DNA of 64,000 nucleotides from an uncultured bacterium (GTDB taxonomy: Bacteria > Armatimonadota > Hebobacteria > CAIYQO01): contig CAZPYA010000001.1 in assembly GCA_964590255.1 (NCBI GenBank), positions 18,660 through 82,659 of the forward strand, written 5' to 3'. The position numbers and the translations under genes were made by a program. Below are positions 5,707 to 64,000 of this stretch, piece by piece. Every line of letters starts with the position of its first letter. Positions within the stretch are counted from its first letter, which is position 1. The notes under the pieces are model-generated. The model was not told the DNA's origin and did not search any database. It saw nothing but the letters and a program-made list of their open reading frames with translations.

Positions 5707-5741
5707 CCATCCCTCCCCCTGCAGGAGAGGGGGAGGGATGG
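5707..5741. repeat. perfect GC-rich hairpin (14-bp stem, 7-nt loop), a member of the CCCTCCCC...GGGGAGGG repeat family
   Basis: ccatccctccccct gcaggag agggggagggatgg, read directly from the sequence. Confidence 0.8.
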
Positions 5742-9432: not shown

Positions 9433-9611
9433 GGGAAAGCCTCCGCAAGGATGGGTGTGCCTACAGTATACCGCAAAGTGGGGAAAAGATGCTGGGAGTA
9501 TGGTTATCCGCAACATGATGCGGAAAAATGACTGACGAATTGCATCAAGCTGAACCAACAATTCCATCCTACCCTGACCGGCACCATCTGATCAAGCGAG
9601 AATTTGTGATG

Positions 9612-11003
9612 TTAATGGGCGGTTGATAACGTCGGAGTACCGGGAGCGACACTCCATGCCTGTGATGTAACAGTCATAAAAGAGCCCGCCGGTTTTGTAT
9701 AGATGACTGTCTGTGACGAACCATCGGATTTCATGATTATGATGGAGGAACCACGCACACAAAGCAACTTGGTGTCATCCGGACTCCAGCAGACCTTGGT
9801 TATTCCCTGGCCGTTTGCCACTTGCGCCAGTCCTGTTCCATCAGCATTGATGAAGAATAAACCGGCATATGTGCCGACTTTTCCGACAACAGCGAGTCGC
9901 GTGCCGTCCTTACTCCAGGTGGGATACCACAGGTAATCGGTAGGGGTGAGATTCGTCAAGGGGATATCGGCTCCTGACGACAAATCAATACGATGCAAGT
10001 TAATTGTCAGGTATGCCTGATCCTCTTCATGTCGTCCATAAATCAGATATCGACCATCCGGACTGAAAGTCGGATAATCTTCACGCTTCCAATGGCTCGT
10101 ACGCTGAATACGATTCGACCCATCTGCATTGGCCGTATATACCTCCCCGGTATCGTTGTCATTTGAGTAAAATGCGATTTGCTTATCGTCCAGGCTCCAG
10201 TTCGTATTGCATATCCAGTAAGGTTGGATCACTTTCCACAGTTCTCGTTTATTCGTGCCGTCGCTGCTCATCATCATGAGGCGATATCGATAGACCAGAT
10301 CGCCATAATCCCCTTCGGAATAGAGGACACTTTTACCGTCATGACTAAGTGATGCATATTCCGTGTAGCCTGTATTGCTGAATGGCAAGAGCGTTTTCCG
10401 TGATGAGCCGTCGGCATTCAATAGTTGAATGGATGTGGCATTGCTGCTGTCACGCAGAGAGATGACAATCATGCCGTTAAGGCTGATTTCATCGCTTATC
10501 CCACCATGTCCATCCGCGGCAATGATGACCACATGCTTGTTATGCCGGAAGTCCAGGTCGTCGATCCCAACGATGGCGTAATTGCCGACTGTCTTCATAC
10601 GCAGCAGATCACCGGTTTCAATCGTTGACGCCGGATCCTTGATATCGCCACGGGCCATATCAAACAATTTGGCGTTGAATCCGTATTCCGGCGCGGTGTT
10701 GGTGCCCGTGCCGGTGAGGGACGGGCAATCGTAAATCTGTTTCTCGTTGTAGGCCACCAGCGCCTTCGACCAGGCCTGAGTGGCGGGGTCTGGGAAGAAC
10801 TTGTCGTCGTAGTCATCGGTATACATCTGCATCGCGATGGCAATCTGGCGCTGGTTGGCGAGGCAGGTGGCCTGGCGCGCCTTCTCGCGCGCTTTGGCGA
10901 AGATCGGGACGAGGATGGCCGCGAGCACCGCCAAGATGGCGATGACCACCAGTAGCTCGATGAGCGTGAACGCATATCGATGCGTGCGTAGCCGTGCGGG
11001 CAT
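9612..11003 (-). CDS. prepilin-type N-terminal cleavage/methylation (DUF1559-like) protein fused to a TolB-like (PD40) beta-propeller
   Basis: N-terminus MPARLRTHRYAFTLIELLVVIAILAVLAAILVPIFAKAREKARQATCLANQRQIAIAMQMYTDDYDDKFFP is the classic type IV pilin-like / DUF1559 signature. The C-terminal about 300 aa has repeated propeller-like blades (YSEGDYG, SPDGRYLIY, WSKDGTRLAV, WSPDDTKLL). The gene is about 50% GC, below the window background. Confidence 0.75.
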   Translation of the reverse strand: MPARLRTHRYAFTLIELLVVIAILAVLAAILVPIFAKAREKARQATCLANQRQIAIAMQMYTDDYDDKFFPDPATQAWSKALVAYNEKQIYDCPSLTGTGTNTAPEYGFNAKLFDMARGDIKDPASTIETGDLLRMKTVGNYAIVGIDDLDFRHNKHVVIIAADGHGGISDEISLNGMIVISLRDSSNATSIQLLNADGSSRKTLLPFSNTGYTEYASLSHDGKSVLYSEGDYGDLVYRYRLMMMSSDGTNKRELWKVIQPYWICNTNWSLDDKQIAFYSNDNDTGEVYTANADGSNRIQRTSHWKREDYPTFSPDGRYLIYGRHEEDQAYLTINLHRIDLSSGADIPLTNLTPTDYLWYPTWSKDGTRLAVVGKVGTYAGLFFINADGTGLAQVANGQGITKVCWSPDDTKLLCVRGSSIIIMKSDGSSQTVIYTKPAGSFMTVTSQAWSVAPGTPTLSTAH

Positions 11004-11193
11004 CTGGAATCCTCCCGCTGCTGTTGACAGGACTGGTATCGAAATAAAGATAACTATACCAATTATACACCCTCTCTATCGATTAGCAAGCTGAATGTAT
11101 AAAAAAGTTCTATCTATTGGACTCTCGGCCTGGTTAGCGTGGAATATCTCTACGCATGTGCGAGCAGAACAGGGATAATGGACTCTCTGCCGA

Positions 11194-13989
11194 ATGAAGA
11201 CAACGGGTTTGACGATGGGAGTATGCTACGTGAGCACTTGGGCCACATCCGGCACGTATACGCTGTTCTTTACCGATATTGAGGGGAGCACTCGGCGATG
11301 GGGCGAAAATCCGGCAGCGATGCGCGTATTGCTGGAGCAGCATGACCGCATCCTGCGGGAGACGATCGCCACACATCACGGGCATGTCTTTAAAACGATC
11401 GGCGATGCGTTCTGTGCGGCCTTCGTCTCCGCGCAAGATGCCTTGCTGGCTGCCGTCGATGCCCAACTCGCTTTTACCGGTCTTACGGTATCCGCGGAGA
11501 TACCGATTCGCGTGCGCATCGCATTGCACACCGGTGAAGTGGAAGCGCGTGACGACGATTTCTTTGGCCCGCCGGTCAATCGTGTCGCCCGTCTGCTGGC
11601 TATTACGCATGGTGGGCAAATCCTCGTGACGCAGGCCACCTATGCGCTGGTGCGTGATCACGCCCCGGCACAGGTGACATTCTACGATCTTGGGTTGCAT
11701 CGCCTGCGTGATATCGCACGTCCGGAACAGATTCATCAAGTCAATCCACCGGGATTATCCGGTTCATTTCCCCCGCTGCGCACCGACACCTTTACGCCCG
11801 GTAATATCCAATCGCAAGTTACCACATTTGTTGGACGCGAGCACGAATTGCGCGAAATTACCGATTTACTCGGCCAAACCCGCCTTCTTACGCTCATCGG
11901 CATCGGGGGTACCGGGAAAACGCGCCTGGCCGTGCAACTGGCTGAGCTCCTTGCTAGCGATTATGCTGATGGCGCCTGGTTTATTGATCTCGCGCCGATT
12001 ACCGAAGGCGCGCTGGTCGCCCAAACGCTGGCAATCACGCTGGGGATCAGTCTGGAAGGGCATCGGCAAGCTCTGCCGGAAATCGTGGCGTTCATCCGCA
12101 GCAAGCGCTTGCTGCTCGTGCTGGATAATTGCGAGCATCTGGTGGATGCCTGCGCCGAGCTCACCAGCACGCTGCTGAACGCGGGGGCGGGCGTAACTAT
12201 TCTCGCGACCAGCCGCGAGACGCTCCGCGTGCCCGGCGAGACGATTTATCGTCTTCTACCGTTGACCTGTCCGATACCCGATGACGCCACGCCATCACCA
12301 GATGCGCTGATGCAGTATGAAGCCGTACGGCTATTTCTCGACCGCGCGATTGCCGTACAACCGGGCTTCATCATTACCGCAAACAATGCTGCCATCGTCA
12401 GTCAACTCTGTATCAACCTTGACGGATTGCCGTTGGCGATTGAATTGGCGACCGCGAGACTGCGGGTAATGACGGTTGAGCAGATCGTCGCACGGTTGGG
12501 TGATCGCTTCCGACTACTGGCTGGCGGTGCTCGCTCTGTGCTGCCACGGCAGCAGACACTACGCGCGCTGATCGACTGGAGTTATGATCTACTGGACGTG
12601 TCCGAACAGGCATTGCTGCGACGGTTAACGGTTTTCGCCGGCGGGTGGACGCTGGAAGCCGCCGAGGATGTATGCGCGGATGATATAGTCGAAAGTTGGG
12701 AGATTCTCGACTTGCTCACCGGCCTGGTCGATAAATCGCTGGTGTTGTCTGACCCCACCGACGCGGGGATGCGCTTCCGCATGCTGGAAGTGGTGCGCCA
12801 ATATTGCAACGAGAAATTGCGCGACGCCGGTGAAACGGACACCTTCCAGACACGGCACGCCGGTCATTTCCTGGCGCAAGTGGCACGCGAGAAACGTGAG
12901 ATTGCTGGTGCGGCCTCTTCGGATATTTGGGCGCACTGGGCGGCATACAACGTCGCGGAGATGGATAATTTCCGCACCGCGCTACGCCACGACTCCGTCG
13001 GGCTGGACGGTTTTCCGCTGGCGCTGACATTCTTCCGCCGTCTCCCGCAGGAATGCCATTCCTGGCTTGATGTGTTGCTGACTCGCAATATTGATGCACA
13101 AACGATGGAGCGCGCGGAAGCACTGCTCTGGGCGGCGCACGTGTGTCGGACCCATGCGGAAGCACGGCCGTATGTCGAGGAAAGCCTGGTTATCTTTCGG
13201 CAGTTACGGCACACGGCCAGCATCTGCGAGTGTCTGCGTACGCTGTCACGCCACGCCGTCGCACGCGGCGATCTGGTGGAAGCGGAACGATTGAGCGCGG
13301 AATGCCGACGCGAGGCGGGGGATGGTGCGGATTACGATGCTGCGGTACATGCCTGTATCGCCGCAGCGGTGATCGAATTGGCACTCGGCCATGTCGACGC
13401 AGCGCGACCATGTTTGGAGCAGGCGCTCGCGATCCGGCGCAAAATGCAACTGCCCCAGGAAGTGGCCTTTATTCTATTCCATCTCGGCACGGCTGAATAC
13501 TTGACCGGGCATTTTGACCGCGCGCGCGAACTCGCCATGGAAAGCAATCAGTTGTTCCAGGAAACCGGCAATCCATCCTACACACCGCCATTGCGTCTGC
13601 TTGGCGATATCGCACGGGCGCAGGGCTGTTATCATGAAGCGCTAACATATTACCGGGCCAGCATTCTCGACCACTGGCGGCAAGTGGATTCACACACGTC
13701 CATACTACTGTTAGAACGATTCGGTTATACTGATGCCGCGATGGGTTCTCTCGACCGCGCGGTGCGCTGGCTGGCCGCGGCCGACCATCTGCGCCAACGG
13801 GATGGGTATCCACGCATGCCGGTCGAAGTGCGCGAGTGGGAACGAGAGATCACTGTTCTACGTAAGACACTTCACGACACGATTTTCCAGGCCGCCTGGG
13901 ATGCTTGCCACACGGACTACCATACCGATCTCCTAGGAACGGTCTTAACAGAGACGCAAACAGCTGGCACGGAAATGGACTGCGCCTGA
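11194..13989 (+). CDS. class III adenylate/guanylate cyclase domain fused to an NB-ARC/AAA+ (STAND) NTPase and TPR repeats
   Basis: N-terminus LFFTDIEGSTRRW...FKTIGDAFCAAF...ALHTGEVEA is the nucleotidyl-cyclase catalytic domain. It is followed by a Walker A motif (GIGGTGKTRLA) and helical TPR-like repeats at the C-terminus. About 57% GC. The start may be the internal ATG at 11215. Confidence 0.75.
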   Translation: MKTTGLTMGVCYVSTWATSGTYTLFFTDIEGSTRRWGENPAAMRVLLEQHDRILRETIATHHGHVFKTIGDAFCAAFVSAQDALLAAVDAQLAFTGLTVSAEIPIRVRIALHTGEVEARDDDFFGPPVNRVARLLAITHGGQILVTQATYALVRDHAPAQVTFYDLGLHRLRDIARPEQIHQVNPPGLSGSFPPLRTDTFTPGNIQSQVTTFVGREHELREITDLLGQTRLLTLIGIGGTGKTRLAVQLAELLASDYADGAWFIDLAPITEGALVAQTLAITLGISLEGHRQALPEIVAFIRSKRLLLVLDNCEHLVDACAELTSTLLNAGAGVTILATSRETLRVPGETIYRLLPLTCPIPDDATPSPDALMQYEAVRLFLDRAIAVQPGFIITANNAAIVSQLCINLDGLPLAIELATARLRVMTVEQIVARLGDRFRLLAGGARSVLPRQQTLRALIDWSYDLLDVSEQALLRRLTVFAGGWTLEAAEDVCADDIVESWEILDLLTGLVDKSLVLSDPTDAGMRFRMLEVVRQYCNEKLRDAGETDTFQTRHAGHFLAQVAREKREIAGAASSDIWAHWAAYNVAEMDNFRTALRHDSVGLDGFPLALTFFRRLPQECHSWLDVLLTRNIDAQTMERAEALLWAAHVCRTHAEARPYVEESLVIFRQLRHTASICECLRTLSRHAVARGDLVEAERLSAECRREAGDGADYDAAVHACIAAAVIELALGHVDAARPCLEQALAIRRKMQLPQEVAFILFHLGTAEYLTGHFDRARELAMESNQLFQETGNPSYTPPLRLLGDIARAQGCYHEALTYYRASILDHWRQVDSHTSILLLERFGYTDAAMGSLDRAVRWLAAADHLRQRDGYPRMPVEVREWEREITVLRKTLHDTIFQAAWDACHTDYHTDLLGTVLTETQTAGTEMDCA

Positions 13990-14009
13990 CAGACAGTGAG
14001 AGCCGCACC

Positions 14010-30713: not shown

Positions 30714-31712
30714 ATGTCCCTCGCCGGCCTCATACGGAGGCAGCCAATGGAAGGCGATCTGCACGGACTGGCATTGCTGCTGGTGATCATCACCGCCGCG
30801 GTGCTCTGCTACCGGTATGGCAGAGCACCACAATTGGTGCTGCCGACATTTGTCATCTGGTTGGTGGGCGGTTTCTTCGCCATGCTGGTGCTGCATCACC
30901 TGGTCTTCTTACTGGTGCACGTCGTCTGGAACGATCTGTCGTCCGCTGCCCAAATCGCCATTACCTTTGCCACGCATCAGGCGGTGATTTTGCTGGTATG
31001 CCTCGCGCTGGTCTGGCGGGCGCTCACCCTTACGCGAGCACAGAAGCTGCTGCTTATTGGTAGCATCCTGCTACTTGGAGGATTGTCTCTGCTGCATATG
31101 CAGCGTGCAACCCAACGACAGTGGAATTATTGCTGCATTCCTACTTCGATGGCATGGATACGTGAAAGTGCACGGCCATATTTACTGACCCCCCATTATT
31201 ATTGGCATAGTGTGATAACCGGCATTGGGGAGAAAGGAACACCGCTATCCAATAGACAGACAGTATTAATGGCTATTGCCATCATGCAAAGTATTCAGCC
31301 GAAAGGGATGATAACGATTGTGCCGCCACCGATACCAGAGGAAATCGGTGAAAACTTCCGGGAGGGTATGACCAGTGGCACACTCAAAGCATGGGTCGAT
31401 GAGCGTTATAATCAAGGCGTGGGGTCGTTCGTTATGGTCATCGGCGTGATGCTCACCGTTCTGTTGCTGATTCGGTATGCACGGTGGGATGACATTTCAT
31501 ATCCCCTGCGCAAACGCTTCGTCTTTGGCTTGTGTGTAGGCGCGGTGCTGTGTTCCTTTGGGACGAATATCGAAGTGATTCCTTTAACAGTGATGGCTGT
31601 TTGCCTGACTATCCTCGGTTGGTGGCTGCCCAATCGCGCGCAACTACAGGTGACCATGATTCTGCTGTTCTTGCTGCCAACAATAGCATTGAGCTGGCTC
31701 TCGACACTATAA
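30714..31712 (+). CDS. hypothetical polytopic membrane protein (compositionally atypical, about 52% GC)
   Basis: 332 aa, at least 8 hydrophobic segments. GC is visibly lower than that of the neighbouring genes. Confidence 0.5.
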   Translation: MSLAGLIRRQPMEGDLHGLALLLVIITAAVLCYRYGRAPQLVLPTFVIWLVGGFFAMLVLHHLVFLLVHVVWNDLSSAAQIAITFATHQAVILLVCLALVWRALTLTRAQKLLLIGSILLLGGLSLLHMQRATQRQWNYCCIPTSMAWIRESARPYLLTPHYYWHSVITGIGEKGTPLSNRQTVLMAIAIMQSIQPKGMITIVPPPIPEEIGENFREGMTSGTLKAWVDERYNQGVGSFVMVIGVMLTVLLLIRYARWDDISYPLRKRFVFGLCVGAVLCSFGTNIEVIPLTVMAVCLTILGWWLPNRAQLQVTMILLFLLPTIALSWLSTL

Positions 31713-50890: not shown

Positions 50891-53800
50891 CTACTTCACC
50901 TCCATCCGCGCCCCCGCGGCCGGCAGCGCCGTGGTCACCTGTCCCCGGTCGTCCACCGTGCCGGCGGCCTTGCCGTTGATGGTCAGCGCGCGGCCGGCCC
51001 AGCCTTTCGGCAGGGTCAGTGTCGCGTCGCCTTTGCCCATGGCGGTGCCGGTGAGGGTTTGACCGGTCACGCGGAGGGCGATGGGCGCCGTCGACTGTAC
51101 GGTGATGCCCCGGGCGGCGATGCGGCCGGGGGCGCAGAGCACGAGGGCGGTGTAGTCGGGATGCAGCTTGGCCAGGCCGACGGTGCCGTCGAAGGCCACG
51201 CCGCCGGCCGTCGTTTTGAACGGCTGGCGGCTGCAGAAGAGCTGGTCGGCGCGCGCGCCGATGGTGACGGTAATCGCTTTGCCGTCTTTACTGCTGGTGT
51301 AGGTCGGCTGCACCTCGTAGCGCCCGCGCGGGTAGAGCACGACGGCGAAGCCGCCGTTGCCCGGGGTGTTTTTCAGGTGCGCGGCAATCTGGTACTCGCG
51401 GCCGTCCTTGAAATCGGCGCGGGCCGGCCCGCGCTGGGTGTGCCACCATTCGCGCGACTGGATTGCCGGCTTCTTCGGCCAGGCGACATACATGTCGAGA
51501 TCCAGGCTATACTGCCCTTTCCAGCGCACCAGGTCGCCGGCGATCTGCTGGGAATCCGCCAGGCACCAGAAATTCGCCTGCGGGGTTAACTCGGCCTGCC
51601 CGTCCAGGTCGTCGGCGATGAGGAAGTAGTTCGGCCCCTGCAGGTCCGCGTCTTTAATAAACAGGTAGCGGCGCTGCCACTCGTGCGGGCGCGCCAGCCG
51701 CAACCGGCGGAACTCGCTGAAGGACGCCCACGCCTGCGGGTTATCGGATTCCTCGCGGTCGAACCACGGCCAGAGCATGAATTCCATCAGCGGGATGGAC
51801 GCCTGCGCGTAGTCCGCCTCCGGGCTGAAGGCCTGCGCGCGCATCTCGCCGCCCAGCTCCTTGTAGCCGTCGGCGGCCTTCGTCCGGGTGTCCGCGTCAC
51901 GGTCGAACAGCGTGTGCGGCTCATACTGGTGATCGATCCACCCCAGCTTGTTCACCGTATAGAAGCACCCCGTGTCGCGCCCCGGGCATGGCGTCTTGTG
52001 CGTGTGCTCCGCCACGTTCCAGGTGAGGGTGTTGTGCCAGATGCTCTGCCAGCAATTGGGTGAATACATCGAGCTGAAGTCCATCATCAGCGGCACGCCC
52101 TTGGCGTAGAGCAGGAAGGCTCCGACGTCGCGGTCGTAGTGGTCATACCCCTGGTTGCCCACATGGATGGCCATGTAGGTCTCATCCTCGCGCGGGAAGC
52201 CGTTGCGCAAAATCGTCATGCTGCCCGGGTAGACAATGCTGTTACACTCGGGCTGGCGCTCGTCAAAATCCTCGTGCATGTAGTAGATGCCGTCCATGAA
52301 CCCACCCAGCTCGATGCCGGCGCGCTTCCACATCCAGTAGGCTTCGCCGCCCAGCTTGCGGTCGGTCAGGTTCATCAACAGCGCGTATTTGCCGATGTTG
52401 CTGTCCGGTTCCAGCATCGTATGGCCGATGGTGGGCAGCAGGCGCAGGTATTGCGCGCGCGGCTCCGGCGGGGTCATGCGGTCGATCATCAGCCGGGTGA
52501 AGTTCGCCAGCCGCGGATATTTTTTCTGGATGGGCGGGATAGCGCCGGCGTAGTAGAGCGGCAGCGCCATATTCATCAGCGGGTCGGCCTGGGTGCCGGT
52601 GTAGTGTGGACCGCTGATGCTGGAGCCGTCCTCCGCCCACACATTCTGCACCAGCACGTCTACCACTTCCACCGCCAGCGCCAGCCACGGTTGGGCATCG
52701 GGGTTGTCGGAGAGCGTGCAGGCCGTCGCCGCCTGGGCGCCGCGCATGTTCACCGGCATGTTTGCCGAGCCCCAGCCCACGCCGTTGCGACGCGGCGGCA
52801 GGAAGCTCGGGTCGTATAGCATGTGCGCGCAGAAGGCAAAATGCGCTTTCAGCGTCGCCTTGTCCGCCTCGCTGATCTCCGGCATGCCCATGATCAGGTC
52901 GAACTGCGCGGAATATTCCTGCATCCACCAGGGGAACTGGTTGATGTTCAGCCCCACGTTGTGCGCGTTGTAGCCCCAGTCGAAGACGCCGCTGATGAAG
53001 GTATTCAGGTTGCGCATCAAGTCGGCGTAGCTGTCCTGCGCGTGCTTTGCGTTGCTGCTCAGGATGTAGCGGTTGATCGGTTTGTACTGCAGCGCTTTTG
53101 CGCGGTTGAGCAGCGTCTGGCTGGAGCGGATGCGGTGCAACACCGCCGGCAGACCGCCTTCCTTGATGAAGAGCGAGGGGTACGTCTTCTTCGCCGGCCA
53201 TTCCAGCGCCCAGTCTTTCACCACGTCCAGCGGACGGTTGCCGTATTTCGCGCGCAGCCGCAGCGCCTGCGAGCTGCCCTTCTGGAAACCATGCTTCACC
53301 ACCTTGCCATCCTGCACGTCGTCCTGCGGCGCGGCCTCGGGCATGCGCAGGGTGACGAGGCCCCACGACCGCCGCCCCAGGTGCAGCGGCGCCTTGAGGA
53401 TGAGGTCGGGCTGCGCCGTGCTGTAGACGCGCAGTTCGGCGGTGCTGGTGTGCTGGTTGATGGCGGTGCTGGTGCGCGGCAGCATGTCCGGATGCACCCA
53501 GTCCACCGGGCGCAGGGGAATCACCCCCAGCGCGTCGCTCAGCGGGTCTTCCGCCCGCCACAGCAGGTAGCTCAGGCCCAGGTCGGGCTGGTTGCCGTGG
53601 TAGGAATTGATGTCGATCTCGAACTGCGTTGCCTTGTATGTCAGCGAGTAATCGGTCTCCACGTCGAGCTGCATGATGCCGGAGCCGGTGCGCTTTTCCG
53701 GCTGCGAGGCGTTGTGGCCGAACCAGCGCGCTTTCGTCGGGCGCAGACCGTCATACAGCGAGAAGCAGAAGTTGCTCTCGGCGTCGTGCGGGCGCCACGC

Positions 53801-54562
53801 CCACCAGTCCCAACTGATTTCGTCGGCGCGATCCTTTGGCGTCCAGAAACGATAGACTTTCGGGTCGCCCAGCGCGAACGTCTCGTCCACCTGGATCAAC
53901 TCCTGGCGGGCGGCGACGCGCACGGCGCCCTCGTAAATATCCTGCCCCGCGCCGCGGTAGCCGTCGAAAGCATAACGGAAGCCCACCGTCACGAAGACCG
54001 GCCCCTGTTCCAGCACCCACGCCTTCGCCGAACGGCATGTGTGCGGCGTCTCGAACCAGCCGCGCCCGCCCCACGCGCCGCTGCGCTGGCGGATGGCGGT
54101 GAGGAAGGACGGCGTCTGCGCGGCGGCGACCGGCGGGTCGAAGGTCTTCTCCATAAGATTGAAGCGCGCGCCGGTGCGGTCAGTGGTCACCTCCAGCACA
54201 TCGCCGGCGCGAGTCACCCGCAGGTCGCTTGCACCGGTCGGTTTGCCGGGCTGCAGGGTAAGTTGCTGCACGCTATTCGGTGTCAGCGTCGTCACCAGCC
54301 ACAGCGTCGCCGCCCGCAGCGAGCCGTCCGGCCAGGTCGTCACGCCGGCAAGCTGCCCCGGCGCCTCCGTCCCGTCGATGAACAGCCGCGCCGTGCCGCC
54401 CGGAAACGCCCCCTGGGCGAAGGTCAGGTCGTAATGCAGCAGCTCATCCGCCCATGCCTTGCCCACGTATTCCTTCAGGCGAATAGTGTCGCCGGCGGCG
54501 TAAGGCAGGGCGAAGGCTATGCCGGCGCAGAGCAACAGCAGGATGCAGAACAGATTGCGCAT
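50891..54562 (-). CDS. large secreted heparinase II/III-like polysaccharide lyase family protein (about 1223 aa) with extra N- and C-terminal domains
   Basis: Signal peptide MRNLFCILLLLCAGIAFA from the ATG at rc 54560-54562. The central region HVGNQGYDHYDRDVGAFLLYAKGVPLMMDFSSMYSPNCWQSIWHNTLTWN resembles the Hepar_II_III catalytic signature (H.H.D..SF.L...G..L..D.G.Y ... HNT). The 54-aa track ORF N-extension is rejected. Confidence 0.6.
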   Translation of the reverse strand: MRNLFCILLLLCAGIAFALPYAAGDTIRLKEYVGKAWADELLHYDLTFAQGAFPGGTARLFIDGTEAPGQLAGVTTWPDGSLRAATLWLVTTLTPNSVQQLTLQPGKPTGASDLRVTRAGDVLEVTTDRTGARFNLMEKTFDPPVAAAQTPSFLTAIRQRSGAWGGRGWFETPHTCRSAKAWVLEQGPVFVTVGFRYAFDGYRGAGQDIYEGAVRVAARQELIQVDETFALGDPKVYRFWTPKDRADEISWDWWAWRPHDAESNFCFSLYDGLRPTKARWFGHNASQPEKRTGSGIMQLDVETDYSLTYKATQFEIDINSYHGNQPDLGLSYLLWRAEDPLSDALGVIPLRPVDWVHPDMLPRTSTAINQHTSTAELRVYSTAQPDLILKAPLHLGRRSWGLVTLRMPEAAPQDDVQDGKVVKHGFQKGSSQALRLRAKYGNRPLDVVKDWALEWPAKKTYPSLFIKEGGLPAVLHRIRSSQTLLNRAKALQYKPINRYILSSNAKHAQDSYADLMRNLNTFISGVFDWGYNAHNVGLNINQFPWWMQEYSAQFDLIMGMPEISEADKATLKAHFAFCAHMLYDPSFLPPRRNGVGWGSANMPVNMRGAQAATACTLSDNPDAQPWLALAVEVVDVLVQNVWAEDGSSISGPHYTGTQADPLMNMALPLYYAGAIPPIQKKYPRLANFTRLMIDRMTPPEPRAQYLRLLPTIGHTMLEPDSNIGKYALLMNLTDRKLGGEAYWMWKRAGIELGGFMDGIYYMHEDFDERQPECNSIVYPGSMTILRNGFPREDETYMAIHVGNQGYDHYDRDVGAFLLYAKGVPLMMDFSSMYSPNCWQSIWHNTLTWNVAEHTHKTPCPGRDTGCFYTVNKLGWIDHQYEPHTLFDRDADTRTKAADGYKELGGEMRAQAFSPEADYAQASIPLMEFMLWPWFDREESDNPQAWASFSEFRRLRLARPHEWQRRYLFIKDADLQGPNYFLIADDLDGQAELTPQANFWCLADSQQIAGDLVRWKGQYSLDLDMYVAWPKKPAIQSREWWHTQRGPARADFKDGREYQIAAHLKNTPGNGGFAVVLYPRGRYEVQPTYTSSKDGKAITVTIGARADQLFCSRQPFKTTAGGVAFDGTVGLAKLHPDYTALVLCAPGRIAARGITVQSTAPIALRVTGQTLTGTAMGKGDATLTLPKGWAGRALTINGKAAGTVDDRGQVTTALPAAGARMEVK

Positions 54563-54703
54563 GAATGTCTCCTGTCGAGGGTCGATGCGATATTGGACAC
54601 CGGATGGCTGAAGTCGATGCCCCTGCCGTTCCTTTTCGGCCGTCACGGCGGGAATCCTTTCGTGGGACAAATCCCCGTCGCCGGTGTCAAAAGCCGGTAA
54701 GAG

Positions 54704-57700
54704 GTGACACCCATGCGCATCCACCTGGTGCTAGGCTTGCTGCTGTTGTTCGGCGCGGCGCTGTGCGCGGCACAGGAGCCGGGGACGATGGTCTTCACCG
54801 CCGGCCGCCTGGCCGAGCTGCTGCCGCTGAAGCAAGGCGAGTTGGTGGAGGACGACGCGGCGGATGCCGGGCGAGTGTTTCAGGTGAAAACCCCGCTGAA
54901 CCTCGAGCAGTACGGCGATTTCGGCGTGTTGAAGCCGGGGCTGTTCCGCTTCACCGTGCGGGCGAAGCTCACCGAACCGGCGCCCCACGGCGTTACGCTC
55001 ACCATGGCCTGCTGGAACCCGCACGGCAGCGCTACCTCCTTCCGCAACGAGGCGACCATCACCGGCGACGATTTCCCCGCCGTCGGCGAATACGTCAACA
55101 TCAGCCGCGACTTCCGCATCGGCGTGAAGGGCATCCAATACGGCATCTTCCTGCGTGGCGGTTGGCCGGGGCTGCGCATCGAAAGCTTCGCCATCGCCGC
55201 CGTCAGCCCCGCCCCGGTAGAAATCGCCCGCGTGTGGCCGGAAAAGCTGCTCTACCGGCTGGATGAAACAGGCAAGGTGCTGGTCTACCTGCGCAACAAC
55301 ACCGAGACGCCGCAGACCGTGCGGCTGGTGATGGCAGTGGAGAGCGGGCTGACGCAGTCCGTCGGCCTGTATAACGCCGACGTCACCGTGGGCGTGCCCA
55401 CCGCCGAGCAACGCCTGCGGCAGACCGACGTGCAGACGGTGGCGGTGCCGCTGCCGCCCCAGCCGGAATACGGCCACCGGGTGACGGCGCGCCTGTACCC
55501 CGCCGGCGACAAGCCGCAGCCACCGCTGGGGCCGGAGGTGGCCGACTACTTCTACACCAGCAACCGCCCGGTGCAGCTCGGACAGTATGGCGGGGTGAAT
55601 ATCAACGAGCCGTATGCCGCGACGAATCTGGATATCGTACAGATGCATCGCCGCTTCTACTTCCCGGTGCTGGAGTTTATGTTCTGGGCGCCGTGCGAGC
55701 TGTCCCTGCTCACCCCGCCGCCGGGCACGGACCGCTGGTGGAGCGGCCAGACGCTGAAGCAGCTTGCCACCGCGCAGATGAAGGCCTACATCGCCGCCGC
55801 CCATGCCAACGGGATGCAGTGCGTCAGCTACGCCGACTACAACATCATCTACAGCTACCGCATCGTCGACACCTTCCGCCGGCTACCGGATAGCGTGGGC
55901 TGGGACGTGAACAGCAGCCTGCTGGCCTACGAGGTGAAAAATATCGACGCCCAGCGGCGCGAGAACGACGCCGAGCGCAAGACCATGGAGGCGCGCGGCA
56001 TCTACGGGCCCATCGCCAGCCACCCGAAGCTGCTGAAGCTGCACGGCGACCAGCTTGAAGCCGCCATCAAGGCGCTAGACTGGGATGGCTACCGCTGGGA
56101 CGACCCGGTGGACTACGACCGCCCGAGGACCGATATCTTCGGCCGCCAGGCGCCATATACCGGCTACACGAACGCCGGGATGATCGAATATCTGCGCGGG
56201 CGGGTGCGGGGGAGGAAACCGGGAGCATTCTTCGGGCACAACATGGATTGGAATCAGGAAGAAAAGCCCGACCCGGCGAAGAACGTGCCGCCCTACTACA
56301 CCGAATACCTGCGCGACGGCAGCTTCGCGCTGCAGGAAGCGGAGACGAATTTTGCCGTGCGCAACCGCTGGCCGTGGACGCGCTGGGCCGAGCTGACGGA
56401 GCGCGCCGGGCGCAACGCCTATCGCTACGGCGGCGAGCAATACGTCATCATCGACCGCAACAACAGCGCGTTGGAGATGAATTACCTCATCGGGTTGCTC
56501 ACCGCCGGTGGCTGCCACATCGCCTACGGCGTGCCAGAAAGCTGCATCCCCTACATGCGGCTCATCTGCCGCTACAGCGACCTGTTCTACGGCGACAACC
56601 GCCACTTCCCCGATCCCGACGCCACGCTGAAGGTAGACGACGGCGGCAAACTATGGTGGAAGCGCTACGTGCGCTATCGCGCCACCGCGCCGGGGCGGCG
56701 CACCTATTATGTGCACCTGTTCAACCCGCCCACGGCGGAGCGGATGAACGAGCCAAACCCGCAGCCCCCCGCGCCCGCGGCGAACGTGCGCCTCACCTGG
56801 ACGCTGCCGGCGGGGTGGAAGGCAACAGCGGCCTATGCCATCACCGCCGACGCCCCGGGCGCGGTGGAGGCGGTGGTGAATCCCACGCCCACCTGCACCT
56901 ACACGGCCTTCACGCTGGGTCGCGCGCTGGAGCGCCGGCCGCTGGCGCTGGCGGGAACCGCGGTGACGGTACCGAGCGTGAAGCAGTGGAGCATCGTGGC
57001 GGTGGAGTGCACCGGCCCGGCGGACGCCCCCGAGCCGAACGAACGGCTGGCGCTGCCGCCCGCGCCGCCGCTGCCGGACTTGACCGCCCCCGTGGTCGCG
57101 CAGAAGGCGCCGGTGAAGCCGCTGGGCACCTTCCAGGATCGCCGGTATACCGCCGCGCGCTTCGCGGGCAACAAGGCGCTGGCAACGCTGGTCGACGACC
57201 CGGCGGCGAGCGCCGGCACGGCCGCGCGCGTCATCGCCCGAGGCAACATCGAGTTTTATGAGTTCCCCGAGGGCACCATGCCGGCGGGACTGTACCGCTT
57301 CGCCCTGCGCCTGCGCGTGGACAAACCGCTGCCGGAGGGGGCGAAGCTGCTCGTCTCCGCGTGGAGCCCCAACGGCTCGCCGAAGGCCTTCCGCGTGAGC
57401 GCGCCGTTGGACGTGGCCGGCCTCACCCCCGAGCAGGGGTACAAGGAGTTCGCCTGCGAGCTGGAACTGGGCGACGCCCGCGTGCAGACCGGCGTGCAGA
57501 TCGCGAATTTTACCGAGGGGATGGTGGTGGATACCTTCACCATCGCCCAGACGCAGCTTTACCCGGACAGCAAGCGGATGACATGGGAGCCGGGGAACAC
57601 CTGGCCGGAGACCAAACCGGATCCGGCGCGCCCGGAAAACGCCGCCGGCCGGCGGGCGTGGTATGGGCGCGGCCTCTTTTACGAGCACTATCACCTGGAT

Positions 57701-58318
57701 GAGGCGCTGGGGATGATGCTCGGCGCCACCATGACGCACGCCGACCATGTGGTATGGCGCGACCGCCGCGGCTGGGACACGGCCCCCTTCCCGAAGACGC
57801 CGGAAGAGCTGATGGGCTACGATCTGGTCGTCATTGCCAACGTCGACCTGAAAACCTTCTCCCTGCTGCAGCGCGACTGGCTGCGCGGCTACGTGCGCGA
57901 CGGCGGCAAGCTGCTGCTGCTCGGTGGCCCCTACGGCTTCGGCCGCGGCTTCTGGCAGGATTCCGATATCCTCGCCGAACTCATCCCGGCGACGCTGGAA
58001 CCCTACGACCTGCGCGTGGTGGGCGAGAAAACGCCCGTTCCGCTTGTACCCGTCACCGCCTGGGCAAAGGCGGCGACGAGTTGGAAATCAAAGCCCGTCA
58101 CCGCCTGGATGCACGCGGTGAAGCCGAAGCCCGGCGCCACCGTGCACGTCACCGCCGCCGGCCTCCCCGCGCTCATCACTGCGCCTTACGGCAAGGGCGC
58201 CGTGGCCCTTGTCACCGTCGCCCCCCTCGGCGACCCACCGGCGGGCAGCACCCCCTTCTGGAAGAGCGCGGATTGGACGGCGCTGATGGCGGGGTTGGGG
58301 CAGGTGCTGATGAAGTAG
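54704..58318 (+). CDS. large secreted multidomain protein (about 1200 aa) with central glycoside-hydrolase-like region and C-terminal class-I glutamine-amidotransferase-like (ThuA/DUF1355-like) domain
   Basis: Signal peptide MRIHLVLGLLLLFGAALCAAQEP. The C-terminal GYDLVVIANVDLKTFSLLQRDWLRGYVRDGGKLLLLGGPYGFGRG resembles GATase1-like domains. Divergent from the heparinase-like gene with a 141-bp shared intergenic region. Confidence 0.5.
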   Translation: MTPMRIHLVLGLLLLFGAALCAAQEPGTMVFTAGRLAELLPLKQGELVEDDAADAGRVFQVKTPLNLEQYGDFGVLKPGLFRFTVRAKLTEPAPHGVTLTMACWNPHGSATSFRNEATITGDDFPAVGEYVNISRDFRIGVKGIQYGIFLRGGWPGLRIESFAIAAVSPAPVEIARVWPEKLLYRLDETGKVLVYLRNNTETPQTVRLVMAVESGLTQSVGLYNADVTVGVPTAEQRLRQTDVQTVAVPLPPQPEYGHRVTARLYPAGDKPQPPLGPEVADYFYTSNRPVQLGQYGGVNINEPYAATNLDIVQMHRRFYFPVLEFMFWAPCELSLLTPPPGTDRWWSGQTLKQLATAQMKAYIAAAHANGMQCVSYADYNIIYSYRIVDTFRRLPDSVGWDVNSSLLAYEVKNIDAQRRENDAERKTMEARGIYGPIASHPKLLKLHGDQLEAAIKALDWDGYRWDDPVDYDRPRTDIFGRQAPYTGYTNAGMIEYLRGRVRGRKPGAFFGHNMDWNQEEKPDPAKNVPPYYTEYLRDGSFALQEAETNFAVRNRWPWTRWAELTERAGRNAYRYGGEQYVIIDRNNSALEMNYLIGLLTAGGCHIAYGVPESCIPYMRLICRYSDLFYGDNRHFPDPDATLKVDDGGKLWWKRYVRYRATAPGRRTYYVHLFNPPTAERMNEPNPQPPAPAANVRLTWTLPAGWKATAAYAITADAPGAVEAVVNPTPTCTYTAFTLGRALERRPLALAGTAVTVPSVKQWSIVAVECTGPADAPEPNERLALPPAPPLPDLTAPVVAQKAPVKPLGTFQDRRYTAARFAGNKALATLVDDPAASAGTAARVIARGNIEFYEFPEGTMPAGLYRFALRLRVDKPLPEGAKLLVSAWSPNGSPKAFRVSAPLDVAGLTPEQGYKEFACELELGDARVQTGVQIANFTEGMVVDTFTIAQTQLYPDSKRMTWEPGNTWPETKPDPARPENAAGRRAWYGRGLFYEHYHLDEALGMMLGATMTHADHVVWRDRRGWDTAPFPKTPEELMGYDLVVIANVDLKTFSLLQRDWLRGYVRDGGKLLLLGGPYGFGRGFWQDSDILAELIPATLEPYDLRVVGEKTPVPLVPVTAWAKAATSWKSKPVTAWMHAVKPKPGATVHVTAAGLPALITAPYGKGAVALVTVAPLGDPPAGSTPFWKSADWTALMAGLGQVLMK

Positions 58319-58344: not shown

Positions 58345-58440
58345 GTTGTCGGCCCCCCTCCCCGGCCCTCCCCCCGTTCTCTCCGCTGCGCTCCGCGAAC
58401 AGGGGGAGGGAGCGAACTATACATACCCCCTCCCCCTATA
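58345..58440. repeat. diverged family E / GC-rich repeat copy at the left edge of the AT-rich island
   Basis: tcggcccccctccccggccctccccccgttctctccgctgcgctccgcgaacagggggagggagcg ... ccccctccccctatac ... gggggggaggg. Confidence 0.55.
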
Positions 58441-58596
58441 CACACAGGGCACGGGGGGGAGGGTCGATTATGTAATCGTTCACTCTTCCTATACCCGAAC
58501 GCCACTTAACCCTGGCTGTGTGGCTCTACAAATAGGATTGTTCAAACGATGGTGGCCCGCATATTGTTGAATAATTCAAATAACCGTATCACTTAT

Positions 58597-59361
58597 TTAG
58601 ACTATACTAATCGAAATATTTGTAGTATATTGATCCATTGTAGCTACAGCTTCTCCTCCAGTAAATACCCACGCACGGAGTAACATATATGCATCGATAT
58701 ACAGTTTACCTTTTCCAATTCCACTATCATTATAAAAGAAACCTTGTATCTCGCGCGAATATGGATGAAGTGCAACTCCGGTTAAAAATATAGCATGATC
58801 AGCAATATACTCACTGCTTTCCCATCGATCAAAGGAAGATAGATTCATAATTAAGTTATGCCAATCAATCCCAGATCTTCCTTGATTTGCGTGGTAAGAT
58901 GATGAAATATCATCAATAATTTCATTGTTTGTTGATAATATAATGCCGTGACCATCAATAATCATATTTGATAGCCATGCTAATTCCATGTGAGTGTAGG
59001 GGTGAGATTTCATTCCAAAATGATTTAATATCGATACCCACTGCTTAGATGTAGAACCGCCTTCATCATCACAGTAATTCATATCACGAGCATATTCAAC
59101 GATTTCATCTTCAGTGACATATTTCCCAAAACTATTGAGAAGTTGCTCACATGCGACTAAACCACAAGTTCCTTCCATGTCATAGCAGTTATCTCCTTGC
59201 ATGTGACACAATGGCGCAAATGCATGCGGGTATCCATAAACGATTACCTGTCGACTATCATCTAAATAGTGAAGATATGGGGTGGAAAAATCTGATAGTC
59301 GATTATATTGGCATAAACACTTTTCACTTATTTGGACGAGTGACTCCAGTTCGAGTTGCAT
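58597..59361 (-). CDS. papain-fold cysteine-peptidase-like protein (C39-like; Cys-His-Asn/Asp arrangement), AT-rich foreign gene
   Basis: 254 aa from the ATG at rc 59359-59361 with an AAGGAGA RBS. Candidate catalytic residues: Cys in GTCGLVACEQLLNSFG, His in ADHAIFLTGV, then FYNDSG. This resembles the C39/C39-like peptidase signature (GHxvVLtG...nDP). GC by eye about 35-40%. Confidence 0.5.
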   Translation of the reverse strand: MQLELESLVQISEKCLCQYNRLSDFSTPYLHYLDDSRQVIVYGYPHAFAPLCHMQGDNCYDMEGTCGLVACEQLLNSFGKYVTEDEIVEYARDMNYCDDEGGSTSKQWVSILNHFGMKSHPYTHMELAWLSNMIIDGHGIILSTNNEIIDDISSSYHANQGRSGIDWHNLIMNLSSFDRWESSEYIADHAIFLTGVALHPYSREIQGFFYNDSGIGKGKLYIDAYMLLRAWVFTGGEAVATMDQYTTNISISIV

Positions 59362-59407
59362 AATATCTCCTTTTACGCGCAAGGCGCGATAAACCAAGTT
59401 TGTCTAA

Positions 59408-59962
59408 TTAGCGTTTCGTAACTATTCCGTTGTATGATATTTTCCATGTATTTACAGATCGATTCGGTACAGTCGGTTCTTTCCAATATCTATTGATAAT
59501 AGCTGAATCATCAATCTCGGATGTATAAAAGAAATAATCGCATGCGTCATATAATGAAATGCCAACCGATTTCTTTACACCAATGCCTATAACAGTTCGC
59601 TGTGACGATCTTAAACACTTAGCTGCATACGTAAAATCGCTATCTCCTGAGAATATAGCTACCATTTTTACATCATTGCAGACATCAATAATATACTGAC
59701 AATACATAGCCATCATCATATCGGCTGCATTTTTACCCCGATAATTATTTTCAATAGGTTTTTTCTGGATTGCTAGTTCTGCAAACTCACTCATGAATTG
59801 TACGCAAGATGGTTTATTCCAATGCCCATATGCTATTGCATCAATAGAATATCCACGTTTAGCAACAGCAGAAAAGAATGGTTTAAATGAAAAATCATCT
59901 TTTGAATTGAGAAATAAATTTTCTGCATCAATGAGAATTACCGCTTTTTTATTCGTGTTCAT
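59408..59962 (-). CDS. NYN (LabA/DUF88-like) nuclease-domain protein, AT-rich foreign gene
   Basis: 184 aa from the ATG at rc 59960-59962 (RBS GGAGAAAG). KAVILIDAENL (first catalytic Asp), GKNAADMMMAM and IFSGDSDF match the conserved NYN/LabA acidic motifs. 46 bp upstream of, and co-directional with, the peptidase-like gene. Confidence 0.7.
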   Translation of the reverse strand: MNTNKKAVILIDAENLFLNSKDDFSFKPFFSAVAKRGYSIDAIAYGHWNKPSCVQFMSEFAELAIQKKPIENNYRGKNAADMMMAMYCQYIIDVCNDVKMVAIFSGDSDFTYAAKCLRSSQRTVIGIGVKKSVGISLYDACDYFFYTSEIDDSAIINRYWKEPTVPNRSVNTWKISYNGIVTKR

Positions 59963-59964
59963 TT

Positions 59965-60022
59965 AGGCTTTCTCCAAAAAAATAAAATAAAAAAATACCT
60001 CGCAGAAAAAATCTTGCGAGAT
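59965..60022. terminator. bidirectional intrinsic terminator-like hairpin (ctcgcag-aaaaaatc-ttgcgag) flanked by A-run (left) and T-run (right), sitting in the 5' leader of the NYN gene
   Basis: On the minus strand the hairpin is followed by UAUUUUUUUAUUUUAUUUUUUU, then the RBS and start codon. On the plus strand it is followed by auauuuuuuauuucc. Confidence 0.6.
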
Positions 60023-60406
60023 ATTTTTTATTTCCCTGCAACATTAAATAATTTTCAATGCAGCGGGATACTAGATGTTGTTCTCCCCCGAAGGAAGATT
60101 AGCCTGGTAAGGCCGGCGAGAGCATATTGGATACGCCGCCGCAACCCCATGACCAAATCATATCCTATGCCTCTCCCCTTGTCAATAGGTATTTGGGCCA
60201 ATATACAATCTTTTTCTACCTGGACTTATTGTCCGCAGGCTCTGTTAATCATGACACATGAAATGGATATATCGGTGCTGTCTGGCGTATGAATCAGGTA
60301 CCATGCTTACCCAGCCTGACATCAACCCGTCTGGAGTCTGGTATCAAAGCATCGGCCCCCGGTTTCCCAGGGGCCGTGGGGTCAGGTGGAGCTGAATCAG
60401 CAGAGG

Positions 60407-61228
60407 TTACTTCTGGTCGCGCACGTCCAGTTTCACGTCCGCGCGATTGAACTCCACGTGGGTATCGCTGGTGAAGGCGGCCTGTTTGTTCACCACGGGC
60501 ACGGTCTTTGTCATCGGGCCGGCGACTTTTGTGTTGTCTCGGTACAGGTTGACGGTGAGCATCACTTTGCCGTCCGCCGGCGGCACGGCGCGGCGGCCGT
60601 TCCAGCGCAGGGTGAGCATGGAGCCATCCAGCCGGTAGAGGCGGGTGCGGCGTACTTTTCCCACGTTCAGGCGGTAGGAGTTGGGCAGCGTCCAGCTTGC
60701 CGGACGGCCGGCGTGCACGCTGAACTGCACGTCAAAACCGGTGATGCGCAGCCGGCAGGGCAGCGCGCGGGTCAGCGCCTGCGCGTCGTCCTCCAGGTTC
60801 AGCGCGGTGTCGGGACTCAGCCGGATGGCGTGGGTGCCGGCGGGCAGCGCCGCCGACTGCAGGCTGGTCACCTGCGAAGCATTTTTCACCAGGATCATGC
60901 TGCCGGCGGCGGCGCCGGTGTTGCCCAGGTCCACGTCCAGCTTCGGCGCGGCGCCATCCGTGGTGATGGTGTTGCCTTCCGACGTTTCCATGGTCGGGCC
61001 GGGCAGCGTGGCGACCGCCTCTGTCGAGTCGGCGGGCTTCACGACGGCGTCGGCCAGCGTGGCGTCAGTCACGTCTGCCGGATCTTCCAGCGTCGTGGTG
61101 AAGGCGACCGGCTCTACCACTTCACTGATCGCTGTGCTGTCGGATGCGCAGCCATAGAGCATGAAGCCAACGAGCACAATGGCGAGCAGACCCCCGAACG
61201 TGCGGCAGACGGATGCGAGATCGAACAT
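60407..61228 (-). CDS. hypothetical lipoprotein
   Basis: MFDLASVCRTFGGLLAIVLVGFMLYGCASD lipobox, ATG at rc 61226-61228 with an AAGGGGGAA RBS. Native-like GC. Confidence 0.5.
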   Translation of the reverse strand: MFDLASVCRTFGGLLAIVLVGFMLYGCASDSTAISEVVEPVAFTTTLEDPADVTDATLADAVVKPADSTEAVATLPGPTMETSEGNTITTDGAAPKLDVDLGNTGAAAGSMILVKNASQVTSLQSAALPAGTHAIRLSPDTALNLEDDAQALTRALPCRLRITGFDVQFSVHAGRPASWTLPNSYRLNVGKVRRTRLYRLDGSMLTLRWNGRRAVPPADGKVMLTVNLYRDNTKVAGPMTKTVPVVNKQAAFTSDTHVEFNRADVKLDVRDQK

Positions 61229-61461
61229 GTGGTTCCCCCTTGAGTTGAATTCAGGCGTAATACGAGTGCAATAACTGGACACGTCAGCTGCAGCCGAAAG
61301 GGGGAGGGATCGGCTCTCGCCACACCGGGAGAAGATGCGGTCACATGGTTATTCCACGGATCGGGGGTTTATGAGAGATAACATGAGAAAATATATAATT
61401 GATGTTAACTATACGAGGGGTTGGTATGGTATGGGACGCGAAAGTGGGACATTGTGCCTAA

Positions 61462-64000
<2,539 letters not shown>

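Follow-up and report, generated by a model that had tools for sequence, protein, structure and literature searches.

The described systems closest to the locus analyzed here involve C39-type cysteine peptidases and NYN-domain ribonucleases. Among C39 toxins, Cpe1 and StbD-CT cut GyrB and ParE at Gly-Gly motifs and are restrained by immunity proteins (PMC12136450; bioRxiv 10.64898/2026.05.07.723447), so that a C39-type peptidase can be toxic in the cytoplasm, and Tox-PL-C39 has been described as a domain class of polymorphic toxins (PMC3482391). A 64,000-nt stretch of the genome of an uncultured bacterium of the Armatimonadota (GenBank assembly GCA_964590255.1, contig CAZPYA010000001.1, positions 18,660 to 82,659; the whole stretch is hereafter called the window) was found to carry one gene of each kind, side by side, within a small AT-rich islet.

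Both genes are new, divergent members of known families. Their combination is undescribed in PADLOC and in the searchable literature, where no NYN-plus-peptidase defence system was found, in agreement with the original prediction, made from the sequence alone, that no characterised system is known to have this nuclease-plus-peptidase pairing. The adjacency of the NYN and peptidase genes was unique to this locus in the data searched. Because the pair was found nowhere else in those data, the islet is read here as a one-off, recently acquired accessory operon, whose two conflict-type hydrolases would each act on their own substrates and be linked by co-expression only; this reading is given about an even chance of being correct. 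The islet is not a demonstrated new defence system.

A two-gene AT-rich islet and its products

The islet and its contents are the following:

58,464..60,060, no strand: AT-rich foreign islet, supported by GC content, GC content at third codon positions (GC3) and junctions reproduced in the assembly L001
59,408..59,962, minus strand: gene 1, 184-aa stand-alone NYN (PIN-like) ribonuclease-domain protein (Pfam, alignment)
59,362..59,407, minus strand: spacer of 46 bp between the genes, without a terminator; AAGGAG lies 6 nt ahead of the second ATG
58,597..59,361, minus strand: gene 2, predicted 254-aa divergent Peptidase_C39_2-like papain-fold cysteine peptidase (phmmer, alignment A1, AlphaFold2)

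The lowest GC content anywhere in the 64 kb was that of the islet, with 35.8% (58,466-60,050) with respect to 64.8% and 65.1% in the flanks. The 500-nt segments across 58,501-60,000 showed values of 0.362, 0.382 and 0.332, that is, 5.6 to 6.6 standard deviations (SD) below the remaining 500-nt segments (mean 0.648, SD 0.048), which confirmed the original description of an AT-rich block as the strongest compositional anomaly of the window. When examined in 40-nt steps, the GC drop began at ~58,464 and ended at ~60,060, giving an islet of ~1.6 kb; the ~350 nt at 60,051-60,406 were of intermediate composition (50.8% GC). GC3 was 0.26 and 0.28 in the two islet genes, compared with 0.76-0.93 in the neighbouring genes. 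Based on its base composition and GC3, the islet is low-GC foreign DNA lying in an intergenic region of a ~65% GC genome, and it was acquired recently, given that its composition is extremely unameliorated.

The junctions of the islet with the surrounding GC-rich DNA are real, since they were reproduced in an independent Logan assembly (L001, from run SRR12261226), which spanned both islet edges with 99.97% identity over 58,358-61,295 (1 base different in 2,938), and since a contig from the Joint Genome Institute (JGI) showed a gene order identical to that of the window locus. An assembly chimera or a contaminant read-through, to which the extreme compositional break might otherwise point, was ruled out by the recurrence of both junctions in the Logan assembly and by the gene order of the JGI contig, and its probability is practically negligible.

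Exactly two long open reading frames (ORFs) were detected in the islet, of 184 and 254 aa, both on the minus strand and both full length, with every invariant residue intact. The first ATG (NYN) is preceded by a Shine-Dalgarno-like GGAG and the second ATG (peptidase) by AAGGAG. An alternative TTG start, located 36 nt upstream of the peptidase ATG, would extend the protein to 266 aa, but has no ribosome-binding site. The terminator scan returned nothing in the 46-bp spacer. The original description of two co-directional genes with a 46-bp gap, ribosome-binding sites and deviant codon usage was thus borne out by the ORFs and their GC3. The two genes were co-acquired and form an operon-like, bicistronic unit that is almost certainly co-transcribed, as indicated by their common composition and orientation, the short terminator-free spacer, and a Shine-Dalgarno sequence of their own for each gene.

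The gene 1 protein matched the Pfam family NYN (PF01936) with an E-value of 9.9e-21 and 75.2 bits, against a cut-off of 24.2, the match taking in residues 7-146 of the protein and 142 of the 145 positions of the profile. When aligned with its best relatives (A3), the protein kept all of the invariants (D12, E14, N15, G76-KNAAD81 and G106-DSDF110); the acidic residues D12, E14, D81, D107 and D109, together with N15, were invariant both in A3 and in the window protein. The assignment to the NYN/LabA-like nuclease-domain proteins, first proposed on the basis of IDAEN, GKNAAD and SGDSDF, was therefore supported by Pfam and by the motifs. Because every invariant NYN position is kept, the protein has an intact catalytic centre of the kind seen in metal-dependent PIN-like RNases, and it is predicted to be a metal-dependent NYN endoribonuclease. 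It ends just past the NYN domain, with no OST-HTH tail, and has no hydrophobic N-terminus. Its best relatives were only 34-35% identical, and corresponded to 280-320-aa proteins of Planctomycetota and myxobacteria with a long C-terminal region after the NYN domain, which in many of them includes OST-HTH (PF12872). A weak match to the PDB entry 2qip was also obtained (E = 3e-4).

Plasmids of Vibrio (29 of them) and plasmids or phage-plasmids of Klebsiella (~66 records) were also found to carry short NYN genes, with 29-32% identity (for instance, the Vibrio plasmid NZ_CP046807.1, the Klebsiella plasmid NZ_CP144133.1, and the Klebsiella phages CP101896.1 and CP101890.1, the two plasmids being loci L133 and L134, respectively). 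The scan of viral contigs with the NYN protein gave no match.

The peptidase was more divergent with respect to its profiles. It scored 17.7 bits against PF13529 (C39_2; threshold 24, E ~4e-3) and 17.6 bits against PF03412 (C39; threshold 22), below threshold in both cases. Hence, the profile check put forward with the original prediction gave a split outcome: the NYN protein was far above its cut-off, and the peptidase itself was sub-threshold, its membership being indirect, via relatives. A word-indexed search of 5.8 billion clusters with the peptidase returned only itself, and an exhaustive phmmer search of 1.84 billion representatives recovered 294 clusters at E ≤ 1e-3 and 83 at E ≤ 1e-10, the best match showing 42% identity over the N-terminal half.

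The alignment A1 comprised 36 sequences, i.e., 35 relatives and the window peptidase. Its conserved positions were Q55-G56-x-N58, C66 (within GTCGLVxC), H189-A190 (NHA..TGV) and N211-D212 (NDSG), with C66 conserved in at least 90% of the sequences, H189 invariant, and N211 and D212 conserved in at least 90% and invariant, respectively; the window peptidase keeps all of them. PF13529 was matched by 31 of the 36 sequences (E ≤ 0.01; best 1e-9). The model built from A1 with AlphaFold2 (AF2) had a mean predicted local distance difference test score (pLDDT) of 85.1 and a predicted template modelling score (pTM) of 0.81; its low-confidence parts were the first ~28 residues (a helix), the last few residues, and a private insert of ~24 aa or more before H189. 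The predicted fold was papain-like and nearest to C39-like structures, and structural neighbours of the model included the C39 toxins Cpe1 (9l5u, Foldseek) and StbD-CT (8ssm).

Judging from the alignment and the model, gene 2 encodes a divergent papain-fold peptidase of the C39_2 type with a Cys-His-Asn/Asp arrangement, whose putative catalytic residues are Cys66, His189 and Asn211-Asp212 and in which Q55 would be the oxyanion-hole residue. The C39-like papain fold originally suggested by GTCGLVAC, DHAIFLTGV and FYNDSG stood up in this respect, as the motifs are present, most of the aligned sequences match C39_2, and the AF2 fold agrees. No peptidase match was found in phage records or in the scan of viral contigs with the peptidase alignment, and plasmid records contained one partial match, on a Burkholderia replicon.

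Distribution of the pair and of the peptidase family

The recurrence of the pair was searched for in the loci of peptidase relatives, covering 40 genome places retrieved with a 9-sequence peptidase alignment, 80 metagenome places and 8 places of individual relatives (~128), with up to 5-6 kb per side. A hidden Markov model (HMM) built from NYN relatives picked up the NYN gene of the window, at E = 4e-70, as well as the L001 copy; these aside, it matched no ORF within 5-6 kb in any of the ~128 loci. The closest NYN relatives had no peptidase neighbour, their genes lying between MlaE/FHA and TIG/LTD, and the plasmid-borne NYN genes of Klebsiella and Vibrio stand alone, with no peptidase nearby. 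The pair was a single occurrence among 5.8 billion protein clusters. Non-conservation in other genomes had been named beforehand as refuting the original prediction, and no such conservation of the pair was seen in the co-occurrence check.

All-against-all clustering of ORFs, together with Pfam, revealed a recurrent gene order around relatives of the peptidase: a sigma-70/ECF-like factor, the C39-like peptidase, a ~175-aa protein, a ~500-550-aa protein, and two dynamin-like GTPases. Neither the ~175-aa partner nor the ~500-550-aa protein had a Pfam match; the former shows conserved HPLR..EIPVEH, APDRWW and PDFF.WLE motifs, and the dynamin-like GTPases weakly matched the PADLOC models LeoA/LeoBC. 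The ~175-aa partner was present in 57 of the 102 loci with room for it, and in 66 loci overall when both hmmsearch rounds are considered. Three of the four closest relatives examined (P0033, P0034 and P0036) lie in this sigma-dynamin cluster.

The cluster was distributed among Actinomycetota, Chloroflexota, Planctomycetota, Acidobacteriota and cyanobacteria (e.g., L010:4931-12578, L019:4599-12583, L042, L129 and L131, all of them outside the window), and the searchable literature yielded no account of it. The best relative (P0032, 42% identity; L043:3090-9572) keeps the ~175-aa partner in a different neighbourhood, next to a HerA/DUF87-like ATPase, VWA, PP2C, and a Ser/Thr kinase, for which reason the peptidase and its ~175-aa partner look like the mobile core. 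The tight linkage of this uncharacterised C39_2 subfamily to the ~175-aa partner, often together with paired dynamin-like GTPases and a sigma factor, is the more reusable result of the analysis, and the cluster, although it lies outside the window, may be the more interesting lead.

None of these companions accompanies the window peptidase. Profiles of the partner and of the ~530-aa protein had no hmmsearch match at E ≤ 1 among all window ORFs, and no sigma factor or dynamin was detected by Pfam in the ten flanking genes (40-64 kb). As all of its usual companions are absent, the window peptidase is a stray member of the family. The NYN protein was also considered as a divergent form of the ~175-aa partner, a possibility ruled out by an hhalign probability of 0.1%.

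These data bear on whether the islet could be a new two-component system, defensive or toxin-antitoxin (TA)-like, with direct coupling, in which cleavage by the peptidase would switch the NYN protein on or off, or the peptidase would be neutralised by the RNase. The tight bicistronic layout with a common composition, the integrity of both catalytic centres, a terminator-gated leader (described below) that would suit a toxic product, the presence of both families in conflict contexts, and the fact that the searches turned up no described system combining these domains are all consistent with such a system. It is nevertheless regarded as unlikely, considering that none of the ~128 loci of peptidase relatives has a NYN neighbour, that the NYN relatives lack a peptidase neighbour, that the NYN protein is unrelated to the partner of the family, that the locus lies outside defence islands, and that the pair occurs once in 5.8 billion protein clusters; as a single occurrence, it provides no evolutionary support for joint action.

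That the pair forms an obligately coupled conflict module, for example a protease-gated NYN RNase acting in abortive infection or addiction and silenced by the leader terminator, is decidedly doubtful. If such a module were real, this singleton would be its first sighting, and enzymes acting together in this way would add a protease-plus-NYN-RNase architecture to the small immune and addiction modules.

In addition to the sigma-dynamin cluster, the peptidase domain was found inside 1100-2300-aa RTX-repeat proteins (P0035, P0121, P0126, P0141, P0148, P0151 and P0155) and in ~270-300-aa PAAR fusions (P0189-P0191) that are followed by a small unannotated ORF, an arrangement typical of secreted or type VI secretion system (T6SS) toxins. 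The RTX and PAAR carriers serve secreted toxins as delivery scaffolds, which agrees with the Tox-PL-C39 class (PMC3482391).

The gene pair might accordingly be viewed as an orphan interbacterial toxin cassette, with the peptidase as a stand-alone polymorphic-toxin module awaiting a scaffold and the NYN protein as a second toxin or an immunity protein. Domain relatives on RTX and PAAR proteins, the description of Tox-PL-C39 as a polymorphic-toxin domain class (PMC3482391), and the structural resemblance to the C39 toxins 8ssm and 9l5u argue for it. Against this, only ~28 residues precede the domain in the window peptidase, with no trafficking or delivery domain (PAAR, RHS, CdiA or RTX); no full-length toxin and no T6SS, contact-dependent inhibition (CDI) or type I secretion system (T1SS) gene is located nearby; no immunity-type ORF was found downstream of the peptidase in the ~130 nt between its stop (58,597) and the host repeats; and an immunity protein would not typically retain catalytic residues, as the NYN protein does. 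Taken together, this view is considered very unlikely.

Leader, flanking sequence and proposed role

The following features border the islet genes:

59,990..60,029, no strand: bidirectional intrinsic-terminator-like hairpin (CTCGCA...TGCGAG with A/T runs; inverted repeat I14, fold), 28 nt upstream of the NYN start
60,030..60,156, minus strand: structured 5' leader with four predicted hairpins (RNA fold)
60,157..60,185, minus strand: promoter-like TTGACA-17-TATGAT, 11 of 12 positions, the best in the region
58,345..58,463, no strand: REP-like GC-rich hairpin elements of the host, forming the left boundary and not part of the islet (inverted repeat I22)

The hairpin proper occupies 59,999-60,020 and, with A/T runs on both sides, is terminator-like on both strands. 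It had originally been placed at the right end of the island as a flanking terminator; since both genes are on the minus strand, it lies upstream of the NYN start and not downstream of the genes. On the coding strand, the hairpin is followed by a long U-run and then at once by the NYN ribosome-binding site. As the gap from the hairpin to the start codon is too short to hold a promoter, operon transcripts would have to pass through the hairpin. This anatomy would suit a harmful product under tight control, and just as well a hairpin that insulates the islet from the upstream gene.

The predicted fold of 59,950-60,155 on the minus strand, which includes the leader of ~130 nt, had an energy of -65.9 kcal/mol (z = -4.0 with respect to shuffled sequences). 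No Rfam family reached the gathering threshold in the whole window, with chance-level matches only in the leader, and a riboswitch or a known small RNA in the leader was discarded for lack of a match to any Rfam family. Tandem Repeats Finder (TRF) reported only an A-rich 8-mer run and the GC-rich repeats of the host, with no tandem repeats in the leader, which ruled out a ToxIN-like type III TA system.

To the left, the GC-rich repeat copies included in the original description are indeed present at 58,345-58,463, but they are not specific to the island. The CCCTCCCCC/GGGGGAGGG hairpin element occurs in 12 intergenic copies in the window, with 0.97 expected (sites 5711-5737, 18571, 44545, 47717, 58366-58463 and 61300-61591), and looks like a repetitive extragenic palindromic (REP)-like element of the host genome. 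Island-specific flanking repeats were ruled out, as the GC-rich hairpins are genome-wide. Those located between gene 2 and the convergent 1204-aa gene may act as terminators.

Flanking genes were assigned by Pfam to PD40, DUF5693, DUF58/VWA, sulfatase, TPR, and GH2 beta-galactosidase; two proteins of >1200 aa and a 273-aa protein (60407-61228) had no domains. The two large ones are encoded by divergent genes (1277 and 1204 aa; 50891-58318, the 1204-aa gene at 54704-58318) with only a weak GATase1-like C-terminus in Pfam, and 21 nt are common to their called 5' ends, so that at least one of the start codons is probably mis-assigned. Elsewhere in the window, a second and milder low-GC stretch (9500-14000; 46-60% GC) encodes a protein of 463 aa whose N-terminal helix is of the prepilin type (FTLIELLVVIAILAVLAAIL), and another of 931 aa which, by eye, resembles a cyclase/STAND-type ATPase with a TPR-like tail. 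A gene for a 332-aa multi-pass membrane protein (30714-31712) coincides with a dip to 51% GC.

The biological role of the pair is speculative. By analogy only, a conflict-type role is plausible, as suggested by the occurrence of the peptidase family in RTX and PAAR fusions, with a conserved partner and beside dynamin-like GTPases, and by its structural kinship with Cpe1 and StbD-CT. In the reading favoured here, a low-GC piece of ~1.6 kb would have been inserted intergenically, bringing one bicistronic operon for two intact cytoplasmic hydrolases of families that recur in conflicts. Read-through of the leader terminator would keep basal expression low. The gene 1 enzyme, having lost the RNA-binding OST-HTH module, would probably have a loose substrate choice, and the gene 2 enzyme would probably cleave after small residues such as Gly-Gly, like other C39 enzymes. 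The pairing would be the product of a one-off recombination and not a conserved system, with coupling by co-expression only. The least secure steps are that each enzyme would act on its own substrate, either RNA or protein, and that, on induction, the operon might serve as a growth-arrest, anti-invader or addiction-type accessory module.

Several observations weigh against this accessory-operon reading. With respect to genomic-island features, a compositional break and reproducible junctions were found, and an integrase, a tRNA target and flanking repeats were absent: no tRNA was detected in the window, no integrase or transposase ORF in the islet, which holds two ORFs only, and no convincing direct or inverted repeats flanking the islet in the repeat scan, leaving its mobility unexplained. 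The proposal of a small, horizontally mobile element consequently held as regards foreign composition, and failed as regards a mobility gene or a flanking direct repeat. A promoter match of the quality described above appeared by chance in ~6.7% of simulated regions, being suggestive only and not significant. No PADLOC-DB v2.0.0 family was matched at E ≤ 1 by either protein. The neighbourhood consists of glycan-metabolism genes or of ones whose function is unknown, and is not a defence island. Moreover, the pair is a singleton and, its partner being absent, the window peptidase may be unregulated, harmless or decaying.

Some of the same observations would fit a remnant, neutral or decaying, that a larger mobile element left behind, with the two genes as unrelated cargo without a current role. 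No mobility genes or repeats are left, the peptidase has lost the partner of its family and carries a unique, low-confidence insert, and the extremely unameliorated composition indicates a recent arrival. However, both ORFs are full length with all invariant residues intact, both have good ribosome-binding sites, and the two assemblies differ by 1 base in 2,938; a remnant is judged quite unlikely.

As for the original interpretation as a whole, the domain calls and the foreign origin were sustained, and the candidate novel defence or toxin cassette was left without comparative support, considering the ~128 peptidase loci lacking NYN and the lack of a PADLOC match and of a defence island. What the islet does offer is a clean case of DNA acquired horizontally very recently, in which an operon of 36% GC lies in a genome of 65% GC without any remaining mobility machinery and two conflict-type enzyme domains have been shuffled into a new neighbourhood.

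Comparison with described systems

The order of elements upstream of gene 1 (a promoter-like site, a structured non-coding leader, an intrinsic terminator, and then an endoribonuclease gene) recalls type III TA systems of the ToxIN kind. In contrast to these, the window leader has no tandem RNA repeats, the RNase is of the NYN type and not of the ToxN/AbiQ fold, and there is no PADLOC or Rfam match.

Regarding NYN/LabA-like proteins (for example VPA0982, PDB 2qip, and the NYN+OST-HTH proteins found in Planctomycetota and myxobacteria), the window protein shares a full NYN domain with the invariant acidic and Gly-rich motifs, and Klebsiella phage-plasmids and Vibrio plasmids likewise carry short NYN genes that stand alone. 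It differs in being at most 35% identical to any of them, in the absence of the C-terminal OST-HTH/LOTUS RNA-binding module, and in its location in AT-rich foreign DNA beside a peptidase gene, a setting seen in no examined relative.

Among the peptidases, the bacteriocin-processing C39 domains of ABC transporters (ComA, PCAT1, LahT/6mpz; PF03412) differ from the window peptidase, which stands alone with no ABC transporter among its neighbours, is sub-threshold for this profile, and has a larger domain that includes a beta-hairpin extension and an N-terminal helix. The C39 toxins Cpe1 (9l5u), StbD-CT/CdiA-CT of Citrobacter rodentium (8ssm) and the Tox-PL-C39 class resemble the case studied here in that relatives of the window peptidase are also fused to delivery scaffolds (RTX, PAAR), yet Cpe1 and StbD-CT show 11-15% identity to it, with only the fold in common, and the window peptidase has no delivery domain and no adjacent immunity gene.

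A further counterpart is the Peptidase_C39_2 (PF13529) subfamily, represented for instance by the 'C39 family peptidase' of Microbispora (P0181). The window peptidase falls below the Pfam threshold of this family, has a unique insert before the catalytic His, and is not accompanied by the partner, the ~530-aa protein, the sigma factor or the dynamins of its closest relatives P0033, P0034 and P0036, whereas it shares with the subfamily 30-42% identity along the domain, the QGDN...GTCG, NHA..TGV and NDSG motifs, and the predicted fold.

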